Shown here piece by piece: positions 3,615-54,216 of a stretch of 64,000 bases of DNA. The notes under the pieces are model-generated. The model was not told the DNA's origin. It was given only the letters and a program-made list of their open reading frames with translations, and ran no database searches. The translations under genes and the position numbers were made by a program. Source of the DNA: Felis catus (lineage: Eukaryota); assembly GCF_018350175.1 (NCBI RefSeq), contig NC_058368.1, forward strand, positions 44,642,001-44,706,000, given 5' to 3'. Each line of letters begins with the position of its first letter. Position 1 is the stretch's first letter.

Positions 3615-6498
3615 TCATTTTTAAATGAGAATGAAGGGTGTTCTAAATATATTCATATCGCTAATTTTATCCACACATATTTATTGAGTAATCTGTCTGT
3701 TCTGAGCACTGTTCTAATGTGTTTAGGATCCTATGTTTATAAAAGTCTTAAAAGAGAGCTCAGGCCTGAATTATAGTGAAGAATAGTGGATCCAGTACTG
3801 TCTTTGGCCTCTCATAGACCAGATTTCAAAAATAAGGGCCACTGTGTGAGCTTTGCCTGTTATTTAACTTTGATAGGTCTTTGTTTCTTCTTCTGTAACA
3901 TTAGGATAATAATAATAAAATTTCAAGGCTGTTGTAAGGGCTAAATAAGATGGTATGAAAAGTGCTCATATAGGAGACAACTCAACAGATGGCAGCTCAC
4001 TGTAATTAATCATAAGTAATAATTATGCACCTTGATAAATAATTGTGAGAATTGATAAATGCATTATTGGTGGTCAAGATTTCAAGTGACCAAAATATGT
4101 GGAGACGTTGAATGGCTCTTGTCTCATTTTAATGTAGATGTTTGCGAATATTTTCTGATCAGATTCCATTTGATAGCATATGGGCACTAACACTGATAAT
4201 CCAATGTAGATAGCCTCCTCTGCAGGCAGCCATCATATTTGGTGGGCACCCTTATTGCTTCCAGAGAGTATCGCTGCATTAGCATGGCTCTATACCACTC
4301 TGAAAGGTACTACAGAACAATTGTTCTACTTTTGATAACTTATTTCTTTCAACTAGTAATGCCAACTACTGGAATTCTTAGGAGGCAAAAAGCAGTGTGG
4401 TAGTCTGTGGCTATATTGAAGAGAATGTCACTTTGCATTTAGACTTTATTCTGTTCAAGAATAATCTGAATCCTGCCACTTGTGCCTTAAAATTTTAGAA
4501 TTTTCAGTGCAGAAGTTCTTTTAATTTACAACTGTAGCCCTCACTATGAAATTGTATGATTTTCTAATTCACTGTTTAACCTACCTGTCTGAATTCTCAA
4601 ATGGTTTATCTTCAAATTTTATCAATTGTGTATGATGAATGGCTTTATTCTTTGACTATATATTCTCAAAGTGGCATCAGATAAATAGTCTCAAGTTCTC
4701 TGTTAATAAAATATCGAAAGCCACATTGTTACTCTACTTCAGACAAATGTTACCTATTACCCTATTTAAATTCTGAGACAATATGTATATATTTTGTCAG
4801 TATTTTTGGAAGACTGCTATGGAGAACATTAGACCCACAGTTACTCAATTAGAATGCAAAATCACTGCAGGTAGGATGTTTTATCTGTTTTGTTCATTGC
4901 TGTATTCCTAGCACCAAGAACAGTGCCTGGAAGACACTGAAAAAAAAGTTTTGCTGAGTGAGTGAATGAATGAATGAATGATTAAAAAAAGGAAAATTAC
5001 TAAGGAAATACTGAATACCCTATCCTAATCTTAGAGATTTGTAGTACATATTTGTATATTAAAGACAGTGGGGAATCTTGCATCAAATAAAATTATTAAT
5101 CTAGATGTTTATACTTAATATTCTACAGAAAGCTTTCAACACCTATAAAAATCAATTGAAATACATGCCCCCAAAGTAAATATACTTTGGAAAACCAAAT
5201 TGTTTACACAATTTAATTTACATAAGGTCATCAAACTGGCTAACGCTGATTTTTAATATAATATTAATATTTTGTTCATTTAGAATGTCAAATTTCAATC
5301 TTAATACAGACACATTCGGTAATGGTATTTTCTTATCCTGACAACTCAGTATTTTAGGTGGATGAAATGATTTGCTTCCCGCTACTTCCCTATCACCCTT
5401 ATTTTAAGCTGACAAGCTCGTCTGATTTTTCTTTCTTTCTCATACCAAATTGCTTGTTTCCTTCCCAAGAAATGTTGTTTCTGTTTCTGCAAAGAGATCC
5501 ATGTTCATTTAAGATTCAGTTTGCTAAAGACTTCTCCTCTGCATGGTACCCTCAGAAGAGTAGTAACAGGCACACGATTCTGTTCTTCTGAAACATCACT
5601 TAAGCAGCAGGTCCTGGCTCTTCGTTCCCATGCTGTTCTTTTTTCTTATTCCTAGGAACCTAACTGGAAACGTTACGCACAAATTGACATTGACTGGCTA
5701 CTCTGTTAGGCTTTATAATGGACTGAAAAAGAGAAGCACGCATTCTCATTCAACTGTTTCCATCCAGGGGGAAAAAAAAAGGAGATTCATTGATCCTACA
5801 GAGACAACACATCAAGCACTCAGAAAATCCAATTCACTTAAAAAATTAAAGCTGTATTGTTTGTCAGTCAATTCTTCATTTTATTCTCAGAAAAGACTTA
5901 ATACAACTACTTTGCAAGCACTCTATTCTAGTGAAAATATTTGTACATTGATACATTAAATAACGCTTCATATTTCCACTGTCTTTGTTTTTCTTTCACT
6001 TGATTTCTTATTTAAATTGTAATGAAGTAAGGAGCGAGAGGTATGTGTTTTACTTCAACAATTTGTACAAAGATTTCAAAGTCAATCAAAAGTTATTTTT
6101 TAAATAAAATTTTCCTCAAAAAACTTCCTCATATGCTTAAAAGTTCAAGTTCATTGGTTATGTCTGCTGCTGTATAAGCAGGATGGTTACAAGACTTAAG
6201 TCTTGGATATGAAACAGATTTAGCTGCTGACTGACTATATGATCTTGGTCAATATATTTACTTTCAAGCCTTGTTTTTCTTAAAGAAATGGGAACATTCA
6301 AATCTTTACAGTCCAAACAAATAGATTATGCTAATTTAACCTGAGTCATTTTTTTAGAGGGTCTTATGACAAACTTCTATAGTGAATGCTCTATATATTT
6401 TTGAATAAAATGGTTTTTTAACTATATTAATAGCACAATTAATATAATAAATTAATAGCACCAACCAATTTATTTGTTTTTACTATTAAATCATATCT

Positions 6499-6775
6499 GG
6501 GGTGCCTGGGTGGCTCAGTCGGTTAGGCGTCCGACTGTGGCTCAAGTCATGATCTCACAGTTCGTGGGTTCGAGCCCCACGTCAGGCTCTGTGCTGACAG
6601 CTCAGAGCCTGGAGCCTGCTTCGGATTCTCTCTCTTCTCCCTCTCTTTCTCCCCTCTCTCTCTTCTCCCTCTCTTTGTCTCCCTCTCTCTCTTCTTCCCC
6701 CCTCTCTGCCCCTCCCCCCCCACGCTGTCTCTCTCTCCCTCTCAAAAATAAATACACATTAAACAAATTAAAAAA
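6499..6775 (+). mobile_element. CAN-SINE (SINEC_Fc-like) with expanded CT region
   Basis: ggggtgcctgggtggctcagtcggtt head; TSD aaatcatatc. Confidence 0.9.
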
Positions 6776-8574
6776 ATCATATCCTTCATGAATTCTTAAA
6801 CATTATTTCTTTTTTTTGTATTTTGAAAAAGGAGTAAAGAATTGATATAGAAAGACTTGATTATTTTGAGGAAAGCTCAATATGCATTATGTCATACATA
6901 AAAAAAACTAGGTATTTAAGGACTCATTTGTCTTTATTGAACACTTACCACATCTTAAGCATAATTTCTATGAAATATAAATTGTGGAATACTACCAAGA
7001 AAAGGGAGTTATACCAGTATTTTGTATCACACAACACATAATGTACATCGTCACCAATTGTAATCCTTCTGTATCTTAGTATCAAAGCTAATATACAGTA
7101 ATGTCATTAAGATAATTCAGTGAAAAAAATTAGTTTTAACTGTCTTGCCTCTAATGTTATCTTCATTTGAAGATATAGATAACTAAATTTCTTTTTACAA
7201 TATCTGAATATTAAACACACAATGTCAAAATGCTAAAAATAGGTAATTTATCAAAATTAGAGATATTTATACAGAGATATATCAACACCTTGCTTTGAGA
7301 AACCTTTTGTACTGCATCTTTTTAATTCAATGTCTTTTGGTTAGTGTGATGCAGTTGGTAATTAAACTACTGATAAATTTGGGTAACATATTTTGAAAAA
7401 TATTAAAATACTGGGTAATTATGATGGTAAATTATAATTTCAGAAGAGTCTATATTTTCATTCACCTTGCTTCATATTTTATGAATTGTTTGTATACTGT
7501 AATCCATCAAATTGTTATGTTAATATGCTAACATATTAACTATATGCTAATAATTATTTGATTAAGACTTTGAGACCTTTGGGAAATACATCTCCCTATG
7601 CAAGGCACTGACAAAACGATCAACATTTGCCTGGTATGTCACTCAAAAGGGAGCGAAAGCTACTGCTTTCTTCATCAATGGGAAAATGTACAATTTCCTT
7701 TGAAAAATTGAAAAGACTGAGTCAGGTATATTTTTCTTTACTCTGAAAAGAATAATAATGTTTTTAATATTATTAAAATAAATAAAATAAAATGGTTAAT
7801 ATGGCAGATTAGTAGGGGGAACCTATGCTTGCCTCCTCCCCCAAACACAGCTAGATAAATATCAAATCATGCTGAATACCCAAGAAATTGATTTGAGGAC
7901 TGAAAAAACAAACTACACAGCTAGTGGGAGAAAAGAGGCCCAGTAGTGGAAGGGAAAAGGTGTAGAGATGTGATTCATGGGTGCTGTGGAGGGGAAGGAG
8001 CCCTGATCAGAGAAAGGGAGAGAGAGAGAGAGAGAGCAGCACACAAGGGATTGCAAAAGAAAAATACTTCCCTAAAACCATTGACTGGGAAAATGAGACG
8101 GGCTGATTATTTTGAGTTTTTACAAGCAGTAGAGCTCAAAGACTGAAGTTTTAGAAGTTTGTGTCATTGCCAGTGTGGAGCCTGGTAGGCCTAGCATGCT
8201 CCTATGAAGAAGTAGGGAAGACACCCAGGAGCAGACAGTATGGCCAGAGAATCCCTTGGGTCACAATGGGAGAGACAGTTCTCTTTTTTGGAGTGCATTT
8301 GGGAGAGGTGGCACTGCTTTTCTGGGGCAAAAGAGCTGAGGGGGTGCCATTGAGATGCTGTGTTCATTAGCATACAAGCAGAAACACCTGCTGAGGACAG
8401 CTAACCTGGACTCGGGCTTTTTACTGTGCTTTACCACAAACTCCAGGCCCCTGTGCATTCATGGGACTACCCTTCTGGGAAAAACCAGCACCAGCCACAG
8501 CATGGTGAGACCCTCCCACAGAAGATCAGTGCATATCCAAGTTGTGCCATATCGCTAAAAATTTGAAGGTGTTG

Positions 8575-8733
8575 TTGTTGTTTTACACTTATTTTTGAGA
8601 GAGCACTAGTGGGAGAAGAGGAGAGAGAGAGGGAGAGAGAGAGAATCCCAAACAGCCTCCACACTGTCAACACAGAGTCCAGTGCAAGGCTTGAACTCAC
8701 AAACCATGAAATCATGACCTGAGACAGACCAAG
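8575..8733 (-). mobile_element. Partial CAN-SINE inside the L1 5' UTR
   Basis: SINE body lacking the 5' head. Confidence 0.75.
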
Positions 8734-10266
8734 TCTACTGACCAGAGTGCTGCAAAGCTTCAACTCTACTGGACATAGGACCTAGTTTCTTTTAACAAGC
8801 AGACCAAAGTACACCTTGTCATAACTTGCCACATACTGGACAAAGTCCAAAACTCCCCACTGCAGGTAGAGAGAAACTCTGCAGAGGACTGACCTGAGAG
8901 AAAGACCAGACAAAACACAGCAGCAGAGTGCACACAGCATACACCAGAACACTTCTTGAAGCAACAGGCCCTCCATGAATAGTATATGACCACTTCCTAA
9001 TATAGCCATTACTCTCAGGAGCAGGAAACATAATAGGCTTTCCTAACACACAGAAGACAGAGACCTAGAAAAATGTCAAGACAGAGGAATTCATCTCAAA
9101 AGAAAGAACAACAAAAGGTCATAGCCAGAGATCTAATTGAAACAGACATAAGTAATGTGCCTTAGAATTTAAAATAACAATCATAAGGATACTAGCTGGG
9201 CTTGAGATAAGCATAGAAGACACCAGGCAGTCCCATACCACAGAGATAAAAGACCTAAAAACTAGTTAGGACAAAATAAAAAAGGCTATAACCAAGATGC
9301 AAAACCATCTGGATATAAATGACTACAAGGATGGAAGAATCAGAGGAATAACTAAGATATACAAGATAAAATTATGGAAAATAATAAAGTTGAAAAGAAG
9401 AGGGGAATAAAGATATTGGATCATGAGTGTAAACTTAGGGAACTCAATACACCAAAAATGCATAATAACATTCATATCAAAGGAGTCCCAGAAGAAGAAG
9501 AGAAGAAAAAGAGACAGAAATTTTATTTGAGCAAATTATAGCTGAAAATATCCCTAATCTAGGAAAGAAAACAGGCATCCAAATTCAGAAGGTACAGACA
9601 GTCCCCGTCAAAATCAATGAAAGCAGGACAAAACCAAATTTGCAAAATACAGAAATAAGGAAAAAAATGCTTACAGCAGCAAGAGAAAAGAAATCCCTAA
9701 TTGCAAGGGAAGTCAAATAGGATTAGCAGCAGATCTCTCCACAGAAACTTGACAGGACAGAAGGGAGTGGTATGATATATTCAATGTGCTGCATGGGAAA
9801 AATATGTAGCCAAGAATACTCTATCCAGCAAGACTCTCATTCACAATAGAAGGAAAGATAAAGAGTTTCTCAGAAAAACAAAAACTGAAGGAGTTGGTGG
9901 CCACTAAACCAGCCCTGCAAGAAATAGTAATGGGGACTCTGAGTGGGAAAGAAAGAACAAAAGTGACAAAGAGAAGGAACAGGGAAAATTTCCAGAAACA
10001 CCAAATGTATAGATAATACAATGGCACTAAATTCACATCTATCAATATTCACTGTGAATGCAAATGGACTAAATGCTCCAATCAAAATACACAGGATATG
10101 AGAATGGATAAAAACACAATACCCATTTATATGCTGCCTACAAGAGACCCATTTTAGACCGAAAGACACCTGCAGATTGAAAGTGAGGGAATGGAGAACC
10201 ATTTATCATGCTAATGGATGTCAAAGAAAGGTGAAGTAGCCATACTTATTTCAGAAAAACCAGATT

Positions 10267-10480
10267 AAAAAAATTGTTTAACGTTTATTTATTTTTGAGA
10301 CAGAGAGAGACAGAGCATGAATGGGGGGAGGGTCAGAAAGACAGGAAGACACAGAATCTGAAACAGGCTCCAGGCTCTGAGCTGTCAGCACAGAGCCCAA
10401 AAAGGGGCTCTCACGCACCTCGAGATCATGACTTGAGCCAAAGTCGGACACTTAACTGACTGAGCCACCCAGGCATCCCC
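10267..10480 (-). mobile_element. CAN-SINE inside L1 ORF2
   Basis: TSD agaaaaaccagatt. Confidence 0.9.
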
Positions 10481-10849
10481 AGAAAAACCAGATTTTAAAA
10501 CAAAGACTGTAACAAGAGATGAAGAAGGGCACTATATCATAATGAAAGGGCCGATCCAACAAGATCTAACAATTGTAAATATTTGTGCCCCCAACATGGA
10601 AACTCAAATATATAAATCAATTAATAACAAACATAAAGAAACTCACTTGATAACAATACAATAATAGTAAGGAACTTTAAAAACCTACTTACAACAATGG
10701 ACATATCATCTAAGCAGAAAATCAACAAGGAAGCAATGGCTTTGAATGACACATTGGACCAGATAGACTTAAATATATTCATTTCATCCTAAAGCAGCAG
10801 AATACACATACTTTTTGAGTGCACATGGAACATTCTCCAGAATAACTCA

Positions 10850-11240
10850 TATAGGGAAAAAAAGACAAAAAAGAAGAAGAAATAAAAACAGAAATCTAGG
10901 AAAAACTATCTTCTGTCATTATACCAGAATCAACTAAGATTCTCATAGGTGCATAGGATTTCTAAATGTAACAATGGCTCCTGATCTTTAACAAGGTCTC
11001 ATAGTGGTAAATCAAGACCCTGTCACCCAGGCCATTCTTAGTGAATCTGTCATGGAACCTCAGGCTCCTAATGAAGTAGATGATGATGAAGAAGGAGAAA
11101 CTGTAACAGAAGAAAGTGAGAATGAACTGGATAACTCTAAACTCTCAGTCAAATAGGAATGCAGACAGATTTCTCCCCCAACTAAGAGAATATAATTCTG
11201 ACTTAATTAAACTGTGGACTGATGTTCAGCAAAAAATGGA
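10850..11240 (+). repeat. Left arm of long inverted repeat: genomic flank plus 5' fragment of the SPICE1 pseudogene
   Basis: Reverse complement of 15440-15863; encodes [33 protein letters not shown] (SPICE1-like). Confidence 0.95.
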
Positions 11241-12055
11241 CATTTATTTAACTGTCAAAATTATGCTATTTTATACTCTATACGTAGTCATCAAAACTTC
11301 ATTTTGATATTTATTTGGGAAATATTTATCAAAATATTTATCATTTTGATATTTACTTGGGAAAAGCCAATGGACATCTGGTTATAGTGCATACTGTAGG
11401 AAGTTATAGTGCATATGTGGATTAAAAATACAATTGGTAACAAAATGATTGACCTTGCAGACTGATCTGATGCCAACCACCATGATTTCTCTGTTTCAAT
11501 ATACTGGATGAAGAGTTTTCAAATCACTTAATTTTCAGCTTAGAAAATATTTAAAACTGCTTGAAACTATTTAGGTGAGATGTTATGCACTGTACTGACA
11601 TGAGGTTAATCTGAAGAGGACAACGTTGAGATGAAAGCATTAATTTAACCTATGACTACACAACTGCATCCACCCCCAATTCAAACTATGTATTTGAACT
11701 TCTTCAAATCTACCTGGTTGGAAAGCATCTTCAAAATTGTTTTTTATTACTAAATTTTGACATACCTTCAAAATTCATATTAATGATTTGAGTAATTATA
11801 TTTTCATACCAATATATTTTTAATAAATAATTTTTAATAAATTTTAATAATAAATTTAATAAATCTTAATAAATGAATTTTTTAAATAAAGGTTTAGTTG
11901 TGACTAACCTGCCTTATCACAACTTTTGACTAAAGTTTTGGAATTCTGTAGCATGGCAATAATTGCTTGTCGAGAGCAATTAAAGAAAAAGACTTTAATG
12001 GATTATGGAATGAGTATACACACACACACTCACACACACACACACTCACATGCAC

Positions 12056-12640
12056 AGAGTTTTCTATCAATATATAACAGATTATCAAAAACTTCGGCAC
12101 TTACAACAACACCCAAGTATTATCCTATAGTTTTTGTGAGTCAGGAATCTGGGCAAATTAGCTGGACCCTCCTCCTGGGTCTCACAAGGCTGAACTTAAT
12201 GTATTAGGTGGGACGGAGATTGTCATCTGGGGCTTGAATTTTCTTCCAAGCTCATCCAGGTTATTGGAAGGATTTGGTTCCTTGTGTTTGTCTGATTGCA
12301 GGCCCCCTGCCCCATTTCCTTCTGGCTGTGAAACCTGGGCTGTTCTCAGCTCCCAGGTGGTACTCTCAGATCCTTGGTATGCACCATCCTTCATTGCTTT
12401 CTTATGTTAAAATCTCCCTAAATTCAGAAGGATGAAGACCTTTGGAAGGGCACGCTAGATTAGTACAGGCCAACTTACATAACCTTCCTTTTGATTAAGT
12501 CATCTGATTAGTAACCTAAGCAGGGCAATCTTTGTCTCACCATATTCCCAAATTATTCCTTACCTCAAGAGGAGAGTAGTCTATAGAGCACCATGTAGGA
12601 ATCAGACATCTTAAGGCTATCTCAGAATTCTGCCTATCAT
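12056..12640 (-). mobile_element. MaLR LTR (MLT1E/F/G-like)
   Basis: Characteristic gtgagtcaggaatctgggca, cttccaagctcatccaggttattggaaggatt and terminal cagaattctgcctatca. Confidence 0.75.
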
Positions 12641-13329
12641 AATATAGATGTGATATCGTAAGTCATGAAATACTAGTTACATAGGAAGTCTGCACTCTGC
12701 TTTTTACTTCACTGTGGGTTCTACTTTTCTGGAATTCATACTGGAAGATAGATTTATCTTGGCAGTCAGATCTACTTCTCTTTTGATAAATCTGCCATAG
12801 TAATATTTTGAAAATTTATATTAAATTACCAAACTCTCCCATTAAAAACACCTTCATTCATGACTCTTTATTTATTAAGATAAAGAAGGCCAGTTATCCC
12901 CAAACAAATGCAAAGTCCATATTATAGCATCACTTTCTTATGTCAGGATCTCACCTGCTCTTATCCCTATGCTTGCTCTGGACTGTGAACAGGCTGTGCT
13001 TCACCATGGAACACTGCACATGCCATTCTTTCTCCTTGGAGTGTCCCCCTTTCCTTGTTCTTCTAAGTAAATTATATTCATTCTCATTAAGCAGCATCAG
13101 TGCCTTGGAGAAAGTTCTCTGATCTCTGTACCTGTAAAATTCTATTAGTAGCTCTTTTCATAGATACTTTCTGTCTACCTGTATGATTATAGATTGTTTT
13201 CAACACTAGATTATGACTCTGTTCATTATATCATTAGAGCTTAATAATACTTTAAATGAATGATAGAATAAATCAAGGAAATAATATTGAAAGTTAAGAA
13301 ATCTTAGAGTCTCAAAGAATTTTCTGGAA

Positions 13330-15735
13330 ACTTTTTAAATTTGTATTTTTTCCCTGTTGTCAACATTTTATTTACAAGAAGTCGTAGGTTGGTTAGTTAT
13401 TGGAAATCTATTGGAAGAAGTCAAAAATTAAAATAATTGCTTTATTCTTTGTTCCAAAAATACTAAGTCATAAGATCTTTGCAGGTTTTACCTAAAAGAA
13501 GGGCAGGAAAACTTGGAAGCAGGAGCAGAGAAAGGGGAGTGGAAGCTCAAGAATATATTACTGAGAACAAACTCTGTAAAACCAAATTCATTTATGACAA
13601 GTGGGTAGCAAAAGTAAACCAGCCTTTTTCATTTTGTTTCTCAGTCTTTGTTCTTGGATTAAGAGGTGTGAATCACCCAGTTCGTGAGGTAGCATTTAAT
13701 GGAGAACAAGAATTACTAGCAGTCCCTGAAGATCTTGTATTTATTCAATTAGTAGGAGAGACAGCACTGCATTTTGAGCTGTCGGGGGATGTACTTGTAT
13801 AATAAATACTTCAATTGTCCTCTTTTCTCCTTCAGTCCGTGTTCTGGCCGGTGACAGAATGGGCGATACTGGTGGCGAGAAAAGGTCCAAACCAACAAGT
13901 ATCAGCTGCTCTGCAAGACTTTTCTATGAGTATCTATACTCTGCCGATTCATTCCTGCAATCTGTTCCTTCATGCTTCCTGGTGGTAGAGATCGTGCTGC
14001 TGGAAAATTAGCAGTCGTGTCACTTGTATGACTTGTCTCTTATTGAATTCCTGAAGTCCATCCCCTTGCTCTCCTTCTGGCCCAATATTATTGCTCAGAT
14101 GTGTCTTGATAGCTAAATTCTGCAGTGTCGACTCAACAATTTGTGCCATGAAATCCTTTCTCATTCCTGCCTCATTTGTTCTAAGCTATGGCCCATCTCC
14201 CAGTACTAGGGGCTCTTCTGAGAAATTGGGGGTTCTGTCCTGCTAAATGTTTGAATGAGAACTGCGGAGGGTCTGGAAGAGGCTAAAAACAGGAACCCGA
14301 GTTTTGTTCTCCATATCTTCCTCCATATGAGAAACCCTCCACCTCTGAGTGAAGAGGCAACTTCTTTGAATTCTGATTGTGCAGTAGGTAAGGTCTTTTC
14401 TCAATTTTGTTTCTTCTCAATTATTTTCATAGTTGGAAGAATTTGTGGAGCAGGACAAGTTTGAACAGTCCTCCTCAATACATGCTGCAAGGGAGAGAAT
14501 TCTGAGTTGATCTTCTGCCTTGGTGGTGTTATTTGAGCTCAAATACATGTGCTGGAAAATTGTTGGCCAGATCCACACAATTGGGGGGGGGGGGTTGGCA
14601 CCTGGGATAGTTTAACAGCCAAGTCTTCCCGTGGGAATTCAACCACTTCTTCCCCTCTGACCATCGATGGCACAGAGACATTAGCATTTAGAACAGGGCC
14701 CTCTGAATTATCTGTAATTCCTACCCATGGATCCCCTTTCTAATGCCTGATTTTCTGTGTTGCTATTTATCAAAGACAATTCTTTATGGCATGTGTGAGT
14801 GATGTAAGTTGCTAAATCTGTTGTGACCATGTACTGCTGAAGTCTTAACCTGGGTAGTATTTTCTTCTCCAAGAAGAAGAATTTCAGGTGTAAGAGCATT
14901 AGTGAGCTCATGATGATCACCTAACACTTGTAGCAGCTGCCTGTGTCTACTTTATGCAGCTGCAGCTCACTCTCTTTAAGGTACCAAATCAGGCAACAGA
15001 GGGAGCTCACCAGCTACAGAGTGAAACCTGTAAGACTGACTACTCTGTAGTCCCTTGACTTCACATCCTGTCCACCATTCATATTCTTCCATTTAGTGTT
15101 CCACTTCATGTATCATGTGTTTGAGGACATCTAGCCTGAATTTATTGCTATTTGGTAAGTCTGTGGAGGCTATGCTACCTGCTGACATGTTTTCCTTCTG
15201 CTTGGAAGGAGCAAACAAATCCATTTTTCCTTTTATTTTATTTAACAACTGTTTTTTGCTTCCTTGGGGTTAGCGCCTGTCCCACAATATAGCTTGAGTC
15301 TAGAATCTCAGTAGATTCTTCAGATTGAAGCCTGGTGTGGATTCTCTTGGCAGCACTGGTAGGATTTAAAGCAGCTTTTTGTTCCCCTGATGGAAGGACA
15401 GATGATGGAGTTCCTGCAGGGGTTACCTGTGACTGTGTTTCTATTTTTTGCTGAATATCAGTCCAGTTTAATTAAGTCAGAATTATATTCTCTTAGTTGG
15501 GGGAGAAATCTGTCTGCATTCCTATTTGACTGAGAGTTTAGAGTTATCCAGTTCATTCTCACTTTCTTCTGTTACAGTTTCTCCTTCTTCATCATCATCT
15601 ACTTCATTAGGAGCCTGAGGTTCCATGACAGATTCACTAAGAATGGCCTGGGTGACAGGGTCTTGATTTACCACTATGAGACCTTGTTAAAGTCAGGAGC
15701 CATTGTTACATTTAGAAATCCTATGCACCTATGAG
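13330..15735 (-). pseudogene. SPICE1: Processed pseudogene of SPICE1 (spindle and centriole associated protein 1/CCDC52), 5'-truncated
   Basis: Minus-strand translation gives collinear, intronless SPICE1-like peptides: [127 protein letters not shown] (stop 13592-13594). In-frame stops (13673-13675, 15093-15095) and frameshifts. AATAAA at 13367-13372 followed by a decayed A-tract; roughly the first 120 codons are missing. Confidence 0.92.
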
Positions 15736-15863
15736 AATCTTAGTTGATTCTGGTATAAGTATAATGACAGACAGAAGATAGTTTTTCCTAGATTTCTGTT
15801 TTTATTTCTTCTTCTTCTTCTTTTCTTCTTCTTCTTTTTCTTTTTTTTCTTTTTTTCCCTATA
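15440..15863 (-). repeat. Right arm of long inverted repeat, including a TTC/T-rich microsatellite
   Basis: Reverse complement of 10850-11240, with small indels and a longer microsatellite (~15806-15857). Confidence 0.95.
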
Positions 15864-15879
15864 CATTTCATGTCTTTAT

Positions 15880-16792
15880 AGGAAAAGAATTACAAGCTGT
15901 TGACATAACATTTCTCTCTTTGGACACATTTCAGGATAATAAAAATTCCTCCCATCTTCATGAAGATTTGCTTGCATTCTAGAGTATTAAGAAACTTAGA
16001 TATACCATCCCTTGAGAGACATCTGATTAGATTTCAGTGTAATAAACCAAGAAGGCCTTCCCCTCCTCAGATCACAAGAGTCTTTGACATTCTAGGCCAA
16101 AATAAAGTTTTTTTTCTTTTTCCCACAGGGGCTAATGGATGGAAATACCAGCTATCCAACTTAAGCACTAAGTGTTATAATTTTGGAGTGCCTCTCCTGT
16201 GATATGAACTCAGTGCATTCCCAAATAATACCTTGTTCTCACTCTGGGCAATTGACTGATTGTTTGTGTCCTCCCAAAAGTGTATGCTGAAATCCTAACA
16301 CCAATGTGATTGTATTAGGAGGCAGGGCTTTTGAGGCGATGAGGTCATGAATGGAGCTCTCATTAATGGGATTAGTACCTTATAAAACAGGCCTCAGAGA
16401 GCTTCTTCCCCATTTCCACCATGTGAAGACACAGCAAGAAGAGAGCTGTCTATGAACCAGGAAGTGGACTCTCACCAAACACCACATCTGTTGGTGCCTT
16501 GATTTTGGACTTCTCAGCCTCCAGAACTGTGAGGAATAAATTTCTGTTATCTATAAGCCACCCAGTCTTCTATAGCAGTCTCATTGGACTACTGCACTGT
16601 GTGTTCCAGTGAGGATTGGGGCTCAGAGAACTGGCACTAAGATCCTACCCAGGCTGGTGTTTTTGATGTGAGTAATGCATGGCTTGTTTTTCTGCAGTCT
16701 GATACTTCTGTCAGGATACACATGAAATTACATAGACTAACTTGTTAACTTGCAAGTAGGGTAAAGTCTCAGACCCTTCACAGTTTCTGACT
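15880..16792 (+). mobile_element. ERV1-type LTR (MER31/MER67-like) with nested MLT1A
   Basis: Ends gggtaaagtctcagacccttcacagtttctgac, typical of this LTR group. Confidence 0.5.
16245..16595 (+). mobile_element. MaLR LTR MLT1A/A0-like
   Basis: gaaatcctaacaccaatgtgattgtattaggag...gccttgattttggacttctcagcctccagaactgtgaggaataaatttctg. Confidence 0.85.
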
Positions 16793-18873: not shown

Positions 18874-19105
18874 TTTTTTTATTTTTTTTAAATTTTTTTT
18901 AACATTTTATTTATTTTTGAGACAGGGAGAGACAGAGCATGAATGGGGGAGGGTCAGAGAGAGAGGGAGACACAGAATCTGAAACAGGCTCCAGGCTCTG
19001 AGCTGTCAGCACAGAGCCCAACGCGGGGCTCGAACTCACGGACTGTGAGATCATGACCTGAGCCGAAGTCGGCCGCTTAACCGACTGAGCCACCCAGGCG
19101 CCCCG
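18874..19105 (-). mobile_element. CAN-SINE
   Basis: Full body; TSD agatatattctttttt. Confidence 0.92.
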
Positions 19106-19179
19106 AGATATATTCTTTTTTAAAGAGGTGAATCAAATGGGTTATTGCTGTGAACTCTTTTAAACACTAAATTGTAGCT

Positions 19180-19930
19180 ATCCAGTAAGTTAGGAGGTAT
19201 AGCTTGCAGTTTCTTCCCCCTAACTGGTTTATTTTGTTTTGTTTTGTTCTGTTTTTAGTTAGTCAAATTTCTCCAGGATAAAGATTTTACTTCAAACACT
19301 CTTATGTAATTAATTGTGGCCCTGTGACAAAATTTTGGCTAATAATTAAAGATAGAAATGTCAGATGTCAGCTGCTTGGAATTTCTTCAGTAGTTCACAT
19401 GAGTGCTTTCTTGTTTTGTTTGTTTTAGTTTTTTAATGCTTATTTATTTTTTGAAGGAGAGAGAAAGAAAGAGACAGAGTGTGAGTGGGGGGAGGGGCAG
19501 AGAGAGAGGGTGACACAGAATCCAAAGAAGGCTCCAGGCTCTGAGCTGTCAGCACAGAGCCCAACGCAGGGCTCGAACCTACGAACCTTGAGATCATGAC
19601 CTAAACTGAAGTTGGACACTCAACCGAGTAAGCTAACCAGTCCCCCAGTGCTTCCTTGTTTTATGTGTCTTTTCCTGGCTGCTACTGCTTTTATACAGAT
19701 GTGGTGACTAAGTGCTAAAGCCTCCATATGTCCCAAATGGAAAACCAATAGAGCCTAGGTATATTGACAATGGAATGGAAGGATGTGGAGTATCTGGGGA
19801 TTCCATGACACAGAGTTGCCATACCAGCCCTGGCATGCATACCTTCAGCCTTTATATGAAATAGTGATATACTTATATCATCTCTGGTTTATGACCCTTT
19901 AATTGTGATGTTTCCAGTCAACTCTAAACC
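19180..19930 (+). mobile_element. Old MaLR/ERVL-type LTR with inserted SINE
   Basis: Motifs tgtggccctgtgacaaaattttggctaat and gccataccagccctgg. Confidence 0.45.
19425..19646 (-). mobile_element. CAN-SINE
   Basis: ggctccaggctctgagctgtcagcacagagcc core. Confidence 0.85.
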
Positions 19931-20442
19931 CAGTGGATAGAGTGACATTTCCTGGGAATAAAGATGTTCAGTCCAGTATAATATGCTATAAATTGCTTGT
20001 TACAAGTCTTTAACAAGGTAAATACATAAATAGAAAATAAACATTCAGATACTTCTAGAATGATTAACATTAATATGATGTTTTTATTGTATTTTACAAA
20101 AATATTCATCTGCATTAGATAAGAAAAATAATAGAGATCCTTATCACAGATAATTTGAAACTATTAGCCAACATGTATTATGTGTATGTGTGTGTGCATG
20201 TGTGTGTAATTATTATTTCCACTTGCTAGTAAATGTCTAATGGAGGACAGGCTTTATCTGAAGAGCTTAAAATTGTTTAACAGATATGAAGTCATTCTAT
20301 GTCTGCTCTCAGTTTCTATTGGCCCTGAAAGATGATCAGGAACCCACTTTAGCTACTCTTGGAATTATATTTCTTGCACCAAACATATTCCAAAACCCAG
20401 GTATGAAAAATGTGCCAAGCATGTGTGTATTGAGACTCTTTA

Positions 20443-20671
20443 AAAATAATTTTTTTTAATATTTACTTATTTTTGAGAGAGAGAGAGGAGAGAGAGAGAA
20501 CAGGCACGAGTGGGGGAGGGGCAGAGAGCAAGGGAAACACAGAATCTGAAGTAGACTCCAGGCTCTGAGCTGTCAGCACAGGGCCCCATGCGGGGCTGGA
20601 ACCCCTGAACCGTGAGATCATGACCTGAGCCGAAGTTGGGCACTCAGCTGACTGAGCCACCCAGGTACCCC
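20443..20671 (-). mobile_element. CAN-SINE
   Basis: Core motif; flanking gagactct repeat. Confidence 0.88.
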
Positions 20672-21974
20672 AAGAGACTCTAATAGAGGTACTATGAGTA
20701 TCTTTGTGCTAAAATCTTGGTCCTGAGAACATCGAAGTTCAGGATGTGAGGGCATAATGATAGGCCCAACTGTAGAGAAATATCTACCACTAAACAAGTT
20801 AACTTTGCCCCCCCCCAAAAAAAAGGTCAATATAAATGACAGTTCTTGAATAACCCAAATGGATAGAGTTCAAGGTAAAACATTTTTCTAGAAGTGGAAT
20901 GCAATTGCTGAAGGGCAGAGAAAGGAGGGTGGAGGAAGGGAAGGACAAGAATGAGGGAGGGAGAGAAAGTAGAGGGGGTGGAATTTGTTATATTTTACAT
21001 AGCTCCTACAAGTGTGTGGTGGGAGTGTGATGTCACACAGGAAGAAGTTTAAATAGGGCAATGGTTAATTTATTATTGTATCATACCATAGCAAAAAGGG
21101 GAATAAAACTTAAATGTAACAATCACCACTCTTCTACAAAAAATATATTCTCCCCCAAATAGCCTTTACAAAAAGGAAAAGAAAAGCAAGTGATGCCTGC
21201 ATCACAAACAAGAGAACGTTCTTATTCCTTGTCTTCATGATTTTCCAGGCAACGTGCAATTCATTTCTAATTTGTGGTTTTATTTATTGCTCAATTTTGT
21301 TTTTTCTTATTTGCTATTGAAGATTGCTTTAGAAAGTCTATCAAATATACAACTTAATGGGTACTCCAGCTTCTGGTTTTATTGCTGACTATGAACAATA
21401 CAGAAAAAAAAAAAGAGAGAGAGAGAGAGAAAGAAACAGTTTTATTATTACCTACGGCCACTTAAAGATAAACCGTGGCTCAGTTATTAGGGGGAATTGG
21501 ATGTCTTTTCCAATCAGATTTGGAGAGAATGTAATTCTTGAGGGTAAATAACATCTAAGTAAGAAAGAGGTATAAATATAATTAAATTACAATTCTCAAA
21601 ACAAGTAAAACTGTGATGTTTCTCATGATGTATTATACCTGACATATTTTAAAAGGAGTAAAGAGAAATAAAGTTTGTTTAAAACGTAAATAAACAATAT
21701 ACTTGTAACTATTCAATGTGTCTAATACAGCTAATGACTAATCTTTAGTATTTACTTACTTTATTTCAGGTTTTGTATTAAATCACATTAAAGAGTAACA
21801 ACCCCATTTCATAGATAGGGGCTTACTCTTATTTTATATGGCTTTCACGTAAATAAGTTTATGTTAAACATGGCGGGGGGAAGGGAGGAAACAGAACAAA
21901 ACTATATAGTAAGTAATAAAATAATAATAAACAACAATAACAAGAAAAATATTTTAAAAAGACAGAAATGAAAA

Positions 21975-52814: not shown

Positions 52815-53018
52815 TTTTTTTTTTTTTAAGTTTATTTAGTTTTGAGAGAGACAGAGAGAATGTGAGCAAGGGTGGGGCAGAGAGAGGGAGAATGTTAAGC
52901 AGGCCCTGCACTGTCAGCCCAGAGCTGGGCATGGGTTTTGAACTCACAATCGTGAGATCATGACCTGAGTCGAAATCAAGAATCGGATGCTCAACTGACT
53001 AAGCTACCCAGGTGCCCC
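52815..53018 (-). mobile_element. CAN-SINE
   Basis: Full body ending ccaggtgcccc. Confidence 0.85.
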
Positions 53019-54216
53019 AAGACCTCTTTTAATGATAGTGTGAATTTGTATTTTTTATAGAAATACCAAGTCTAGCGTGAAGCATTTGGAAAAATCTGTA
53101 GTGAAAGGAATATAATTTTTAAAAAGGAATTTCTTTAGCTACATCCCACAACATTTGATATATATTTTCATTATCATTAAGTTCAAATTATTTTCCAGTT
53201 TGAGTCACATATCATTTCAAAGTATCTCCTAACTTCAAACAGTTGAACATGGGGCACCTGGCTGGCTTGGTCTATAGAGTATGCAACTCTTGATCTTGGG
53301 GTGGTGGGTTCAAGCCCCTCAGTAAGCACTGAACTTACTCAAAAACAAAAACAAAAAAACAAACAGCTGATTAATTCCCTAGTTTAATTTAGTTTAATTC
53401 CCTGTTGATCAGAGAACATGCCCTATGAGATTTCAAACTTTTGAAATTTGTTGAGGTTTACTTTATGACCCAGAACACAGTAAATTTTGATAACTATTTC
53501 ATGTGTAACTAAAAATATGACCTATAAAGGTAATCACGATAGCACCAAAATTATTTAGATTTTTTTCAAAATGTTGTATGTAATAAACTAGAATATGGAG
53601 GGAAAACTATTTCTACTTCAAAACTTATCTACCCTGAAACAATTTAATTCTAGGAATTCTCATATAAAATAGTTGGTTTAATACAACATACATATAAGGA
53701 AATCAATCATTTTCCTAATAACTTGCTGCCTGCACTCAGGTTTTACACCACCACAGATTTTCATGCCTTGTCTACTTCCATGGGCCTAGACACAGAGGCC
53801 CTAGAAATTAATTCTTTATTGTGATTTATAAACCCTTGTGGCTCTTGGTGCTCCTGTTTCTACCTACCAAGGAGCCCACAACGGCAGTGCCTCCAGACAA
53901 AGGCTGGTGACTACAGTCCACATCTACAGGACTGGCTCCCCTAAAGGCAGAGAAAGGAGTCAGACTACATGACCTCAGTAACTTCCCCCAAAGAAATGAA
54001 TAGAAAGACATGAGAATTTTATGTTATTTGCCAAGTGACTTACTAAACAAAGAGTTAACTGGTAACAAGTAAAGCTATAAAATGAGGGTAAAATATATTA
54101 TATATTATTATATATTATATATTATGTATTATATATACATATATATGACTTCATATAATTACATATAAAAATGTGATTTCAATATGGGAAATTACTTTTA
54201 ACATACAAGCATATTT

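Follow-up and report, generated by a model that had tools for sequence, protein, structure and literature searches.

Hairpin and pseudogene transcripts that give rise to endogenous small interfering RNAs (endo-siRNAs) were reportedly described in mouse oocytes by Tam and by Watanabe in 2008. Another class of inverted structures arises when retrotransposons of the LINE-1 (L1) family insert with part of their own RNA inverted, a mechanism known as twin priming or 5′ inversion and said to have been set out by Ostertag and Kazazian in 2001. The locus considered here is an inverted repeat in the genome of the cat, at which an old L1 adjoins a fragment of a processed SPICE1 pseudogene. It lies in a stretch of 64 kb (C1:44642001-44706000) of an assembly of 2.43 Gb in 71 contigs; this stretch is called the window below, and positions given without a contig are those of the window. 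In a preliminary description, the locus had been taken for a candidate hairpin and endo-siRNA locus. The analysis reported here indicates that it is quite probably a neutral by-product of DNA rearrangement, in which an old retrocopy of SPICE1 acquired a young inverted duplication at the border of the L1.

The endo-siRNA loci of mouse oocytes and the cat locus have in common a pseudogene-derived inverted repeat, the potential for long double-stranded RNA (dsRNA), and antisense sequence with perfect 21-mers to the parent gene. They differ in that the cat locus is known from its sequence only, that its loop of 4.2 kb carries many poly(A) hexamers, and that its repeat, of very recent origin, is situated in a gene desert. 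The host is different as well. The cat locus belongs to a felid, whereas efficient RNA interference (RNAi) in oocytes arose in rodent evolution via a Dicer isoform whose expression is driven by an MT retrotransposon (PMC6944382).

Two described types of DNA rearrangement resemble the structure observed. Inversions made by staggered breaks leave flanking inverted duplications, as in large inversions of Drosophila (Ranz et al. 2007, PMC1885836). The likeness consists of short inverted copies placed exactly at the ends of a segment, of a flip-back that restores a contiguous retrocopy, and of one arm that carries 7 nt of the neighbouring L1. The Drosophila inversions are large, whereas the cat segment measures only about 4.6 kb and its ancestral order is a reconstruction. 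Templated insertions of the type attributed to break-induced replication that is mediated by microhomology (MMBIR; PMC8421209) also resemble the cat locus, where the presumed template lies 4.6 kb off in inverted orientation, 7 nt are shared at the junction, the 3′ part of the L1 is lost, and the break stands beside a GAA-like tract. Unlike in a typical templated insertion, the copied piece is long (391 nt), and the derived insertions and deletions (indels) are found in the presumed template arm and not in the inserted one.

Twin priming shares with the cat locus an L1-mediated insertion that contains an inverted piece of its own RNA. In twin priming, however, the inverted piece would occupy the 5′ side of the insertion itself, and no 391-nt duplication is produced. 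The mechanism is ruled out here by geometry and timing: 2.1 kb of unrelated DNA separate the inverted copy from the poly(A) end of the retrocopy, and the copy is much younger than the insertion.

The inverted repeat and the elements it joins

The left arm (10850-11240, 391 nt, plus strand) is an inverted duplicate of the 5′ end of the retrocopy and reads in the sense direction of SPICE1. The right arm (15440-15863, 424 nt, minus strand) is the retrocopy's own 5′ end and is contiguous with its body. Both arms were delimited by their mutual alignment, and a search for repeats returned the inverted pairs 10986-11214/15464-15692 (229 nt, 100% identity), 10919-10984/15693-15758 (66 nt, 100%), and 10856-10917/15770-15831 (62 nt, 90%). 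A polypurine tract occupies 10857-10886 of the left arm, and a (TTC)n-like polypyrimidine tract was found by Tandem Repeats Finder (TRF) at 15793-15857 of the right arm, as read on the plus strand. Outside the polypurine tract, the arms differ by one substitution and by indels of 1, 2, and 10 nt; in the last, the right arm seems to have gained two short tandem duplications. No homology was detected past the ends of the arms (score 46, against 33 ± 5.8 and a maximum of 62 in shuffles). The junction of the L1 with a sense SPICE1 fragment, which the preliminary description had placed at the left arm, is thus located exactly by alignment, and the antisense pseudogene does end in the right arm as had been proposed.

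The origin of the left arm can be read from its structure. It consists of three SPICE1 exons joined without introns, and it stops mid-exon, at C18:59805868 within the parent exon 59805941-59805799. Because it is intronless and ends within an exon, its source was the retrocopy rather than the gene. When both arms are aligned with the parent gene, 229 of the 261 gap-free columns are identical in all three sequences; the two arms share 31 differences from the parent, the left arm has one difference of its own, and the right arm has none. This sharing of 31 of 32 substitutions makes the inverted duplication much younger than the retrocopy and, together with the intronless structure over three exons and the mid-exon end, rules out both a copying of the left arm from the gene and its origin as a second retrocopy. 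No other SPICE1 copies were found by genome searches with SPICE1-derived sequence.

Polarisation by the parent gene assigns derived deletions of 1 nt and 2 nt to the right arm and a derived A>G change to the left arm. As the private derived states differ between the arms, each of them has been altered since the duplication, and only very slightly. The neutral rate in mammals is about 2 × 10−9 per site per year. Taken at face value, one substitution in about 330 sites puts the duplication within the last few million years, with a very wide Poisson interval and with the provision that gene conversion would make this figure an underestimate. The arms show four indel events, when the length of the polypurine tract is included, against one substitution, a ratio which is odd for neutral decay. 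Repair synthesis prone to errors may have left this excess of indels, or it may stem from errors in the consensus.

A rival reading is that the left arm was mis-joined or falsely duplicated during assembly, so that no real inverted repeat exists. The complete identity of the arm core over 229 and 66 nt would suit such an artefact, as would the preponderance of indels over substitutions, a possible sign of consensus errors. Against it stand the private states of each arm, polarised by the parent gene, the position of the left arm between the L1 and a unique spacer with clean junctions, and the small number of contigs for an assembly of this size. Sequencing runs bear on the same question, but weakly. 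For each run, the share of 482 sampled words of 10800-15900 was listed, and 14 cat-type runs from nine studies hold 0.97-0.98 of these words; when four runs flagged as possible sources are set aside, 10 runs from six studies remain, which hold 0.97. The stretch is therefore ordinary for the species; the figure is not diagnostic for the repeat, since the words of one arm are common to both and only junction words would be informative. An artefact of assembly is considered most improbable.

The retrocopy (13353-15863, 2.5 kb, minus strand) is a 5′-truncated processed pseudogene of SPICE1 which extends from about residue 70-95 to the stop codon and the 3′ untranslated region (UTR), colinear with the exons and intronless. 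It is followed by a degenerate, A-rich remnant of its poly(A) tail, 21 nt long (13332-13352, minus strand). Thirteen exons of the parent gene, which is located at C18:59781170-59819208, are colinear with 15722-13227 of the minus strand, without introns and with identities of 74-91%. By protein-guided and local alignment, weak matches to two more exons upstream are recognised at 15723-15860, as far as the polypurine tract. The gene on C18 is SPICE1 (98% to the Panthera pardus SPICE1 cluster, PF15678), and the open reading frame recognised in the retrocopy matches the same Pfam family, SPICE (PF15678), at 1.3e-13. The copy itself is riddled with stops and frameshifts and holds no long open reading frame. 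An AATAAA motif is aligned to the signal in the parent 3′ UTR, and the A-rich run begins 14 nt after it, without counterpart in the parent. The intronless and polyadenylated form of the copy points to an L1-mediated insertion. A run of 13 G at 14586-14598 of the retrocopy (C on the SPICE1-sense strand) is a homopolymer expansion where the parent encodes a proline-rich stretch.

The age of the retrocopy was estimated from its divergence and from a protein tree. In the alignment with the parent, 2,300 of 2,795 positions are identical, which corresponds to a p-distance of 0.177 and a Kimura two-parameter (K2P) distance of 0.205. In a tree of its stitched translation with 25 SPICE1 orthologues, the retrocopy falls inside Laurasiatheria (97 in the Shimodaira-Hasegawa-like approximate likelihood ratio test, SH-aLRT) and outside the 12 carnivores (91). 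Its end branch of 0.7 makes this placement unsure, and the tree served as a rough age bracket only. The retrocopy is old, and probably older than crown Carnivora.

The L1 (7794-10856, plus strand) is an old element with a complete 5′ terminus, cut inside ORF2, as defined by its ORF1 domains and by alignments to other genomic copies. Its 5′ UTR (about 7794-9074) is followed by a broken ORF1 and by the start of ORF2. A fragment of a short interspersed element (SINE) at 8597-8723 interrupts the 5′ UTR, and a whole SINE is inserted at 10265-10499. Domains PF02994 (9469-9720, 3.7e-08) and PF17490 (9810-10016, 1.7e-12) are still recognised in the ORF1 remnant. With the 5′ UTR piece 7794-8560, 42 other genomic copies align from query position 1-20 at identities of 71-77% (86% for one short piece). 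Because these copies share the same start at such low identity, 7794 (7794-7797) is the true 5′ terminus and the element is old.

At its other end, 39 other copies match the ORF2 piece before the breakpoint with identities of 85-87%, their matches stop at 10842-10854, and L1 homology ends at 10853-10856. In all 11 other copies that were fetched, the L1 runs on past the breakpoint, unlike here. The next 1,400 nt of these copies have no counterpart in the window, save for SINE inserts and one weak match at 52820-53034, and the L1 3′ end, with the reverse-transcriptase region and the poly(A), is absent from the element as far as its homology reaches. The preliminary view of a plus-strand L1 that kept its 5′ UTR and lost its 3′ end is in this way fully borne out.

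Origin of the rearrangement

The breakpoints bear on the way in which the repeat was made. The left arm begins with tataggg (10850-10856), 7 nt in which it overlaps the end of the L1 homology, and the outermost 7 nt of the right arm, ccctata (15857-15863), mirror this L1-derived motif. All 11 other L1 copies carry cata..ggg at the breakpoint, with the L1 reading on, so that tataggg at the edge of the left arm is L1 sequence. When the segment between the arms is flipped, a contiguous plus-strand retrocopy in the order of the mRNA is obtained, directly after the 5′ part of the L1. The restored contiguity and the position of the arms exactly at both ends of the segment match what an inversion by staggered breaks predicts.

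The proposed course of events has two steps. An ancient, L1-mediated retrocopy of SPICE1 would first have landed in gene-poor DNA about 23 kb downstream of KLHL1. Much later, a single rearrangement at the polypurine 5′ end of the retrocopy, at its border with the old L1, would have given rise to a second, inverted copy of the retrocopy's first 391 nt. The favoured mechanism for this second step is an inversion of about 4.6 kb by staggered breaks. On this model, the ancestral order would have been the 5′ part of the L1, the retrocopy on the plus strand, its poly(A), and the present spacer in reversed orientation. A stagger of 391 nt at the L1/retrocopy border, filled in at both ends, would leave an arm on either side of the inverted segment. 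The end of the left arm (...aaatg) and the start of the right flank (cattt) possibly represent a 5-nt inverted duplication left behind by the second break. That indels outnumber substitutions in the arms, with the deletions derived in the right arm, fits error-prone fill-in synthesis.

A switch of template during replication would explain the locus nearly as well. In this variant, an MMBIR-type templated insertion would have occurred at a break in the L1, with tataggg as the microhomology and the retrocopy 4.6 kb away as the template, and the 3′ part of the L1 would have been lost in the process. The GAA-like polypurine tract at the breakpoint suits the inversion and the template switch alike.

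The junction between L1 and SPICE1 that the inversion model restores could itself have been formed in one step. The reverse transcriptase would have switched from SPICE1 mRNA to L1 RNA and run to the 5′ end of the latter, and the resulting chimeric retrocopy would have been inverted later. L1 template-switch chimeras of this kind were reportedly described by Buzdin and colleagues. Such a chimera would refine the best explanation of the locus and not replace it. In its favour, the L1 part starts at the true 5′ terminus, ends where the 5′-truncated retrocopy begins, and shows the left arm's orientation, and no 3′ part of the L1 is present in the window. The ages are also roughly alike, the L1 being 13-15% from its best ORF2 copies and the retrocopy having the p-distance given above. 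To be set against it, the flanks that should hold a target-site duplication, upstream of 7794 and past the poly(A) remnant, both of which are A-rich, align no better than chance; 1,956 of 2,000 shuffles and 115 of 133 A-rich control 50-mers attained the observed score of 9. Furthermore, the whole reading hinges on the inversion model being correct. A chimeric origin of the junction is therefore regarded as rather unlikely, while deserving some weight.

Whichever way the inverted duplication arose, a 391-nt repeat of more than 99% identity around 4.2 kb provides a substrate by which the spacer could flip through recombination, and the locus may be an inversion polymorphism.

Hairpin capacity and its possible consequences

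When the arms are treated as RNA, 380 of 385 nt are paired, the longest helix measures 228 bp, and the cofold energy is −669.5 kcal/mol, compared with −159 to −179 kcal/mol in 10 shuffled controls. The near-perfect stem foreseen in the preliminary description is thus reproduced, provided that both arms are transcribed. The calculations show the capacity of the locus: a transcript of either strand that crosses both arms would fold into a hairpin of about 380 bp with a loop of 4.2 kb. The locus exemplifies how junk DNA can become capable of long dsRNA through DNA rearrangement: the inverted duplication is young, the retrocopy from which it was made is old, and the breaks fall at a polypurine tract and at the edge of an L1, where 7 nt are shared.

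The surroundings of the arms offer little for their regular transcription. The L1 5′ UTR contains 3 CpG in 1,281 nt (observed/expected ratio 0.044), and with this ratio and its low identity to other copies it is heavily decayed as a promoter. On the plus strand, the L1 contains 4 poly(A) hexamers (AATAAA or ATTAAA), the left arm 2, and the spacer and retrocopy between the arms 13, which amounts to 19 from the L1 start to the right arm; six AATAAA lie within 64 nt (11822-11885). On the minus strand, 22 such hexamers occur in 7794-16400. This sequence context argues against regular read-through across the arms. The reservations already expressed about a CpG-poor, SINE-interrupted 5′ UTR and about AATAAA motifs in the spacer are accordingly upheld by the counts.

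Several observations weigh against a purely neutral reading of the locus or against parts of it. To begin with, the near-identity of the arms could result from gene conversion or from selection on pairing rather than from youth. The models of inversion and of template switch are indistinguishable here, and target-site duplications give no help, the scores being no better than those of shuffles: the flank past the poly(A) remnant was set beside the present right flank and the L1-side flank, and the observed scores of the two pairs were attained by 842 and 551 of 1,000 shuffles. Furthermore, the stem includes a run of 50 nt identical to a parent SPICE1 exon (11004-11053, plus strand, with its right-arm partner at 15625-15674). 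This run accounts for all of the left-arm 21-mers which match the parent perfectly (30 of 365). Over the retrocopy, 83 of 2,512 21-mers match the parent locus perfectly, in a count that leaves out 21-mers spanning exon junctions, and the antisense body carries eight more perfect runs of 21-44 nt. The 50-nt match in the stem and the matching 21-mers make the targeting of SPICE1 chemically possible. They also dispose of the objection that perfect 21-nt matches to the species' own SPICE1 might be lacking, which the preliminary description had named as a point to be checked.

A possible RNA signal belongs with these observations. Two RNA-labelled gut metatranscriptome runs from one study (X15 and X16) hold 0.62 and 0.57 of the sampled words, where host DNA may have been carried over. 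The share is 0.38 in a run whose RNA nature is a guess and 0.22 in a run of another study, and such word shares show neither strand nor continuity. Should the word signal stem from RNA rather than from carried-over DNA, at least parts of the locus are transcribed. The shares of three further runs (X19 0.18, X20 0.07, and X21 0.02) are of no evidential value.

A stronger functional claim has to be weighed against this background, namely, that the locus is a hairpin RNA gene. The L1 5′ UTR or another promoter, on either strand, would drive a germ-cell transcript through the arms, and either the stem would be diced to siRNAs or the antisense retrocopy would feed PIWI-interacting RNAs (piRNAs), both acting on SPICE1 mRNA. 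The extensive pairing and its folding energy are in keeping with this, as are the 50-nt match to a SPICE1 exon in the stem, the perfect runs in the antisense body, and the RNA-labelled runs with up to 0.62 of the words, whose origin may be host DNA instead. The mouse oocyte loci mentioned at the outset would be a precedent. On the other side, the L1 5′ UTR is decayed, the locus is intergenic, and none of the 635 windows of 500 nt across the 64 kb qualifies as a CpG island (GC of at least 0.5 and CpG observed/expected ratio of at least 0.6). The plus-strand hexamers between the L1 start and the right arm oppose a continuous transcript. Compared with the retrocopy, the repeat is of very recent date and, for that reason, has no long history of selection. 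The enzymatic setting is also unfavourable, given that the efficient oocyte Dicer isoform is a rodent innovation (PMC6944382) and that full-length Dicer turns long hairpins into siRNA inefficiently (PMC6391682). A hairpin RNA gene is accordingly judged very unlikely.

The proposal of a hairpin and endo-siRNA locus thus divides into two halves. Its structural half stands, with the stem and the perfect 21-mers; its functional half finds no support here, in view of the decayed L1 5′ UTR, the poly(A) hexamers, the intergenic position, and the rodent-specific character of efficient oocyte RNAi (PMC6944382). An endo-siRNA function is a possibility which the sequence permits and which nothing seen here supports. 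The boldest version would be a hairpin locus newly born in the cat lineage from a SPICE1 retrocopy dead for about 60 million years, which, if transcribed in germ cells, would act on a centriole/spindle gene through siRNAs, piRNAs, or edited dsRNA; the chance of this is slight in the extreme. A study of piRNAs in feline testis has been published (PMC10253428). If the hairpin were made in the felid germline, it would bear on whether hairpin small RNAs arise outside rodents, and germ-cell small RNAs acting on SPICE1 would represent a natural de novo origin of an RNAi-type regulator outside that group.

A less demanding possibility is that the hairpin forms occasionally and meets a fate other than RNAi. 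Read-through from KLHL1 on the minus strand, or pervasive transcription, would cross the arms, and the resulting dsRNA would be edited by ADAR or sensed in the same way as inverted SINE pairs, without sequence-specific regulation of SPICE1. KLHL1 does end upstream on the minus strand, the stem forms equally from either strand, and parts of the stretch are held by RNA-labelled total-RNA libraries, as far as word shares can tell. ADAR, the interferon response, and RNAi are the fates named for dsRNA in mammals (PMC6391682). The KLHL1 stop codon is 23 kb away, however, and the 22 minus-strand hexamers in 7794-16400 would have to be passed. This course of events is deemed unlikely, and a neutral by-product of rearrangement is still the preferred explanation of the locus.

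The spacer and the surrounding window

The spacer between the left arm and the poly(A) remnant of the retrocopy (11241-13331) derives neither from SPICE1 nor from L1. It has no match to the SPICE1 locus, and its matches elsewhere are to dispersed repeats only, at query positions 740-1140. It contains an AT-rich tandem array with periods of 10-22 (11811-11887), which carries six AATAAA on the plus strand and four ATTAAA on the minus strand, and an (AC)n tract (12018-12050), both delimited by TRF, as well as an old dispersed repeat at about 12060-12380. The idea that the spacer might be a long SPICE1 3′ UTR was rejected, as it shows no match to the SPICE1 locus and the alignment with the parent 3′ UTR ends near the AATAAA.

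The window takes in the 3′ end of KLHL1 together with the gene-poor DNA that follows. Kelch repeats and the C-terminus (residues about 604-751) are encoded by the last three coding exons of KLHL1, found on the minus strand at 63173-62943, 45239-45027, and 38912-38847, the last being the final coding exon. The inverted-repeat locus lies about 23 kb past the stop codon of KLHL1 and is intergenic. An intronic host transcript is ruled out by the position of the final coding exon, upstream at 38912-38847 on the minus strand. The best protein matches for both genes are felid, with SPICE1 at 98% to the Panthera pardus cluster and felid entries among the best rows for KLHL1. No Rfam family matches the 64-kb window, and in a literature search on SPICE1 together with pseudogenes, no title or beginning of an abstract concerns this locus.

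Carnivore-type SINE copies, 70-85% identical to one another, occur in both orientations a few kilobases apart, at 6419-6697, 10265-10499, 18890-19124, 19429-19648, 20440-20686, and other places. The inverted pairs that they form in the window are far commoner potential sources of dsRNA than the SPICE1 repeat.

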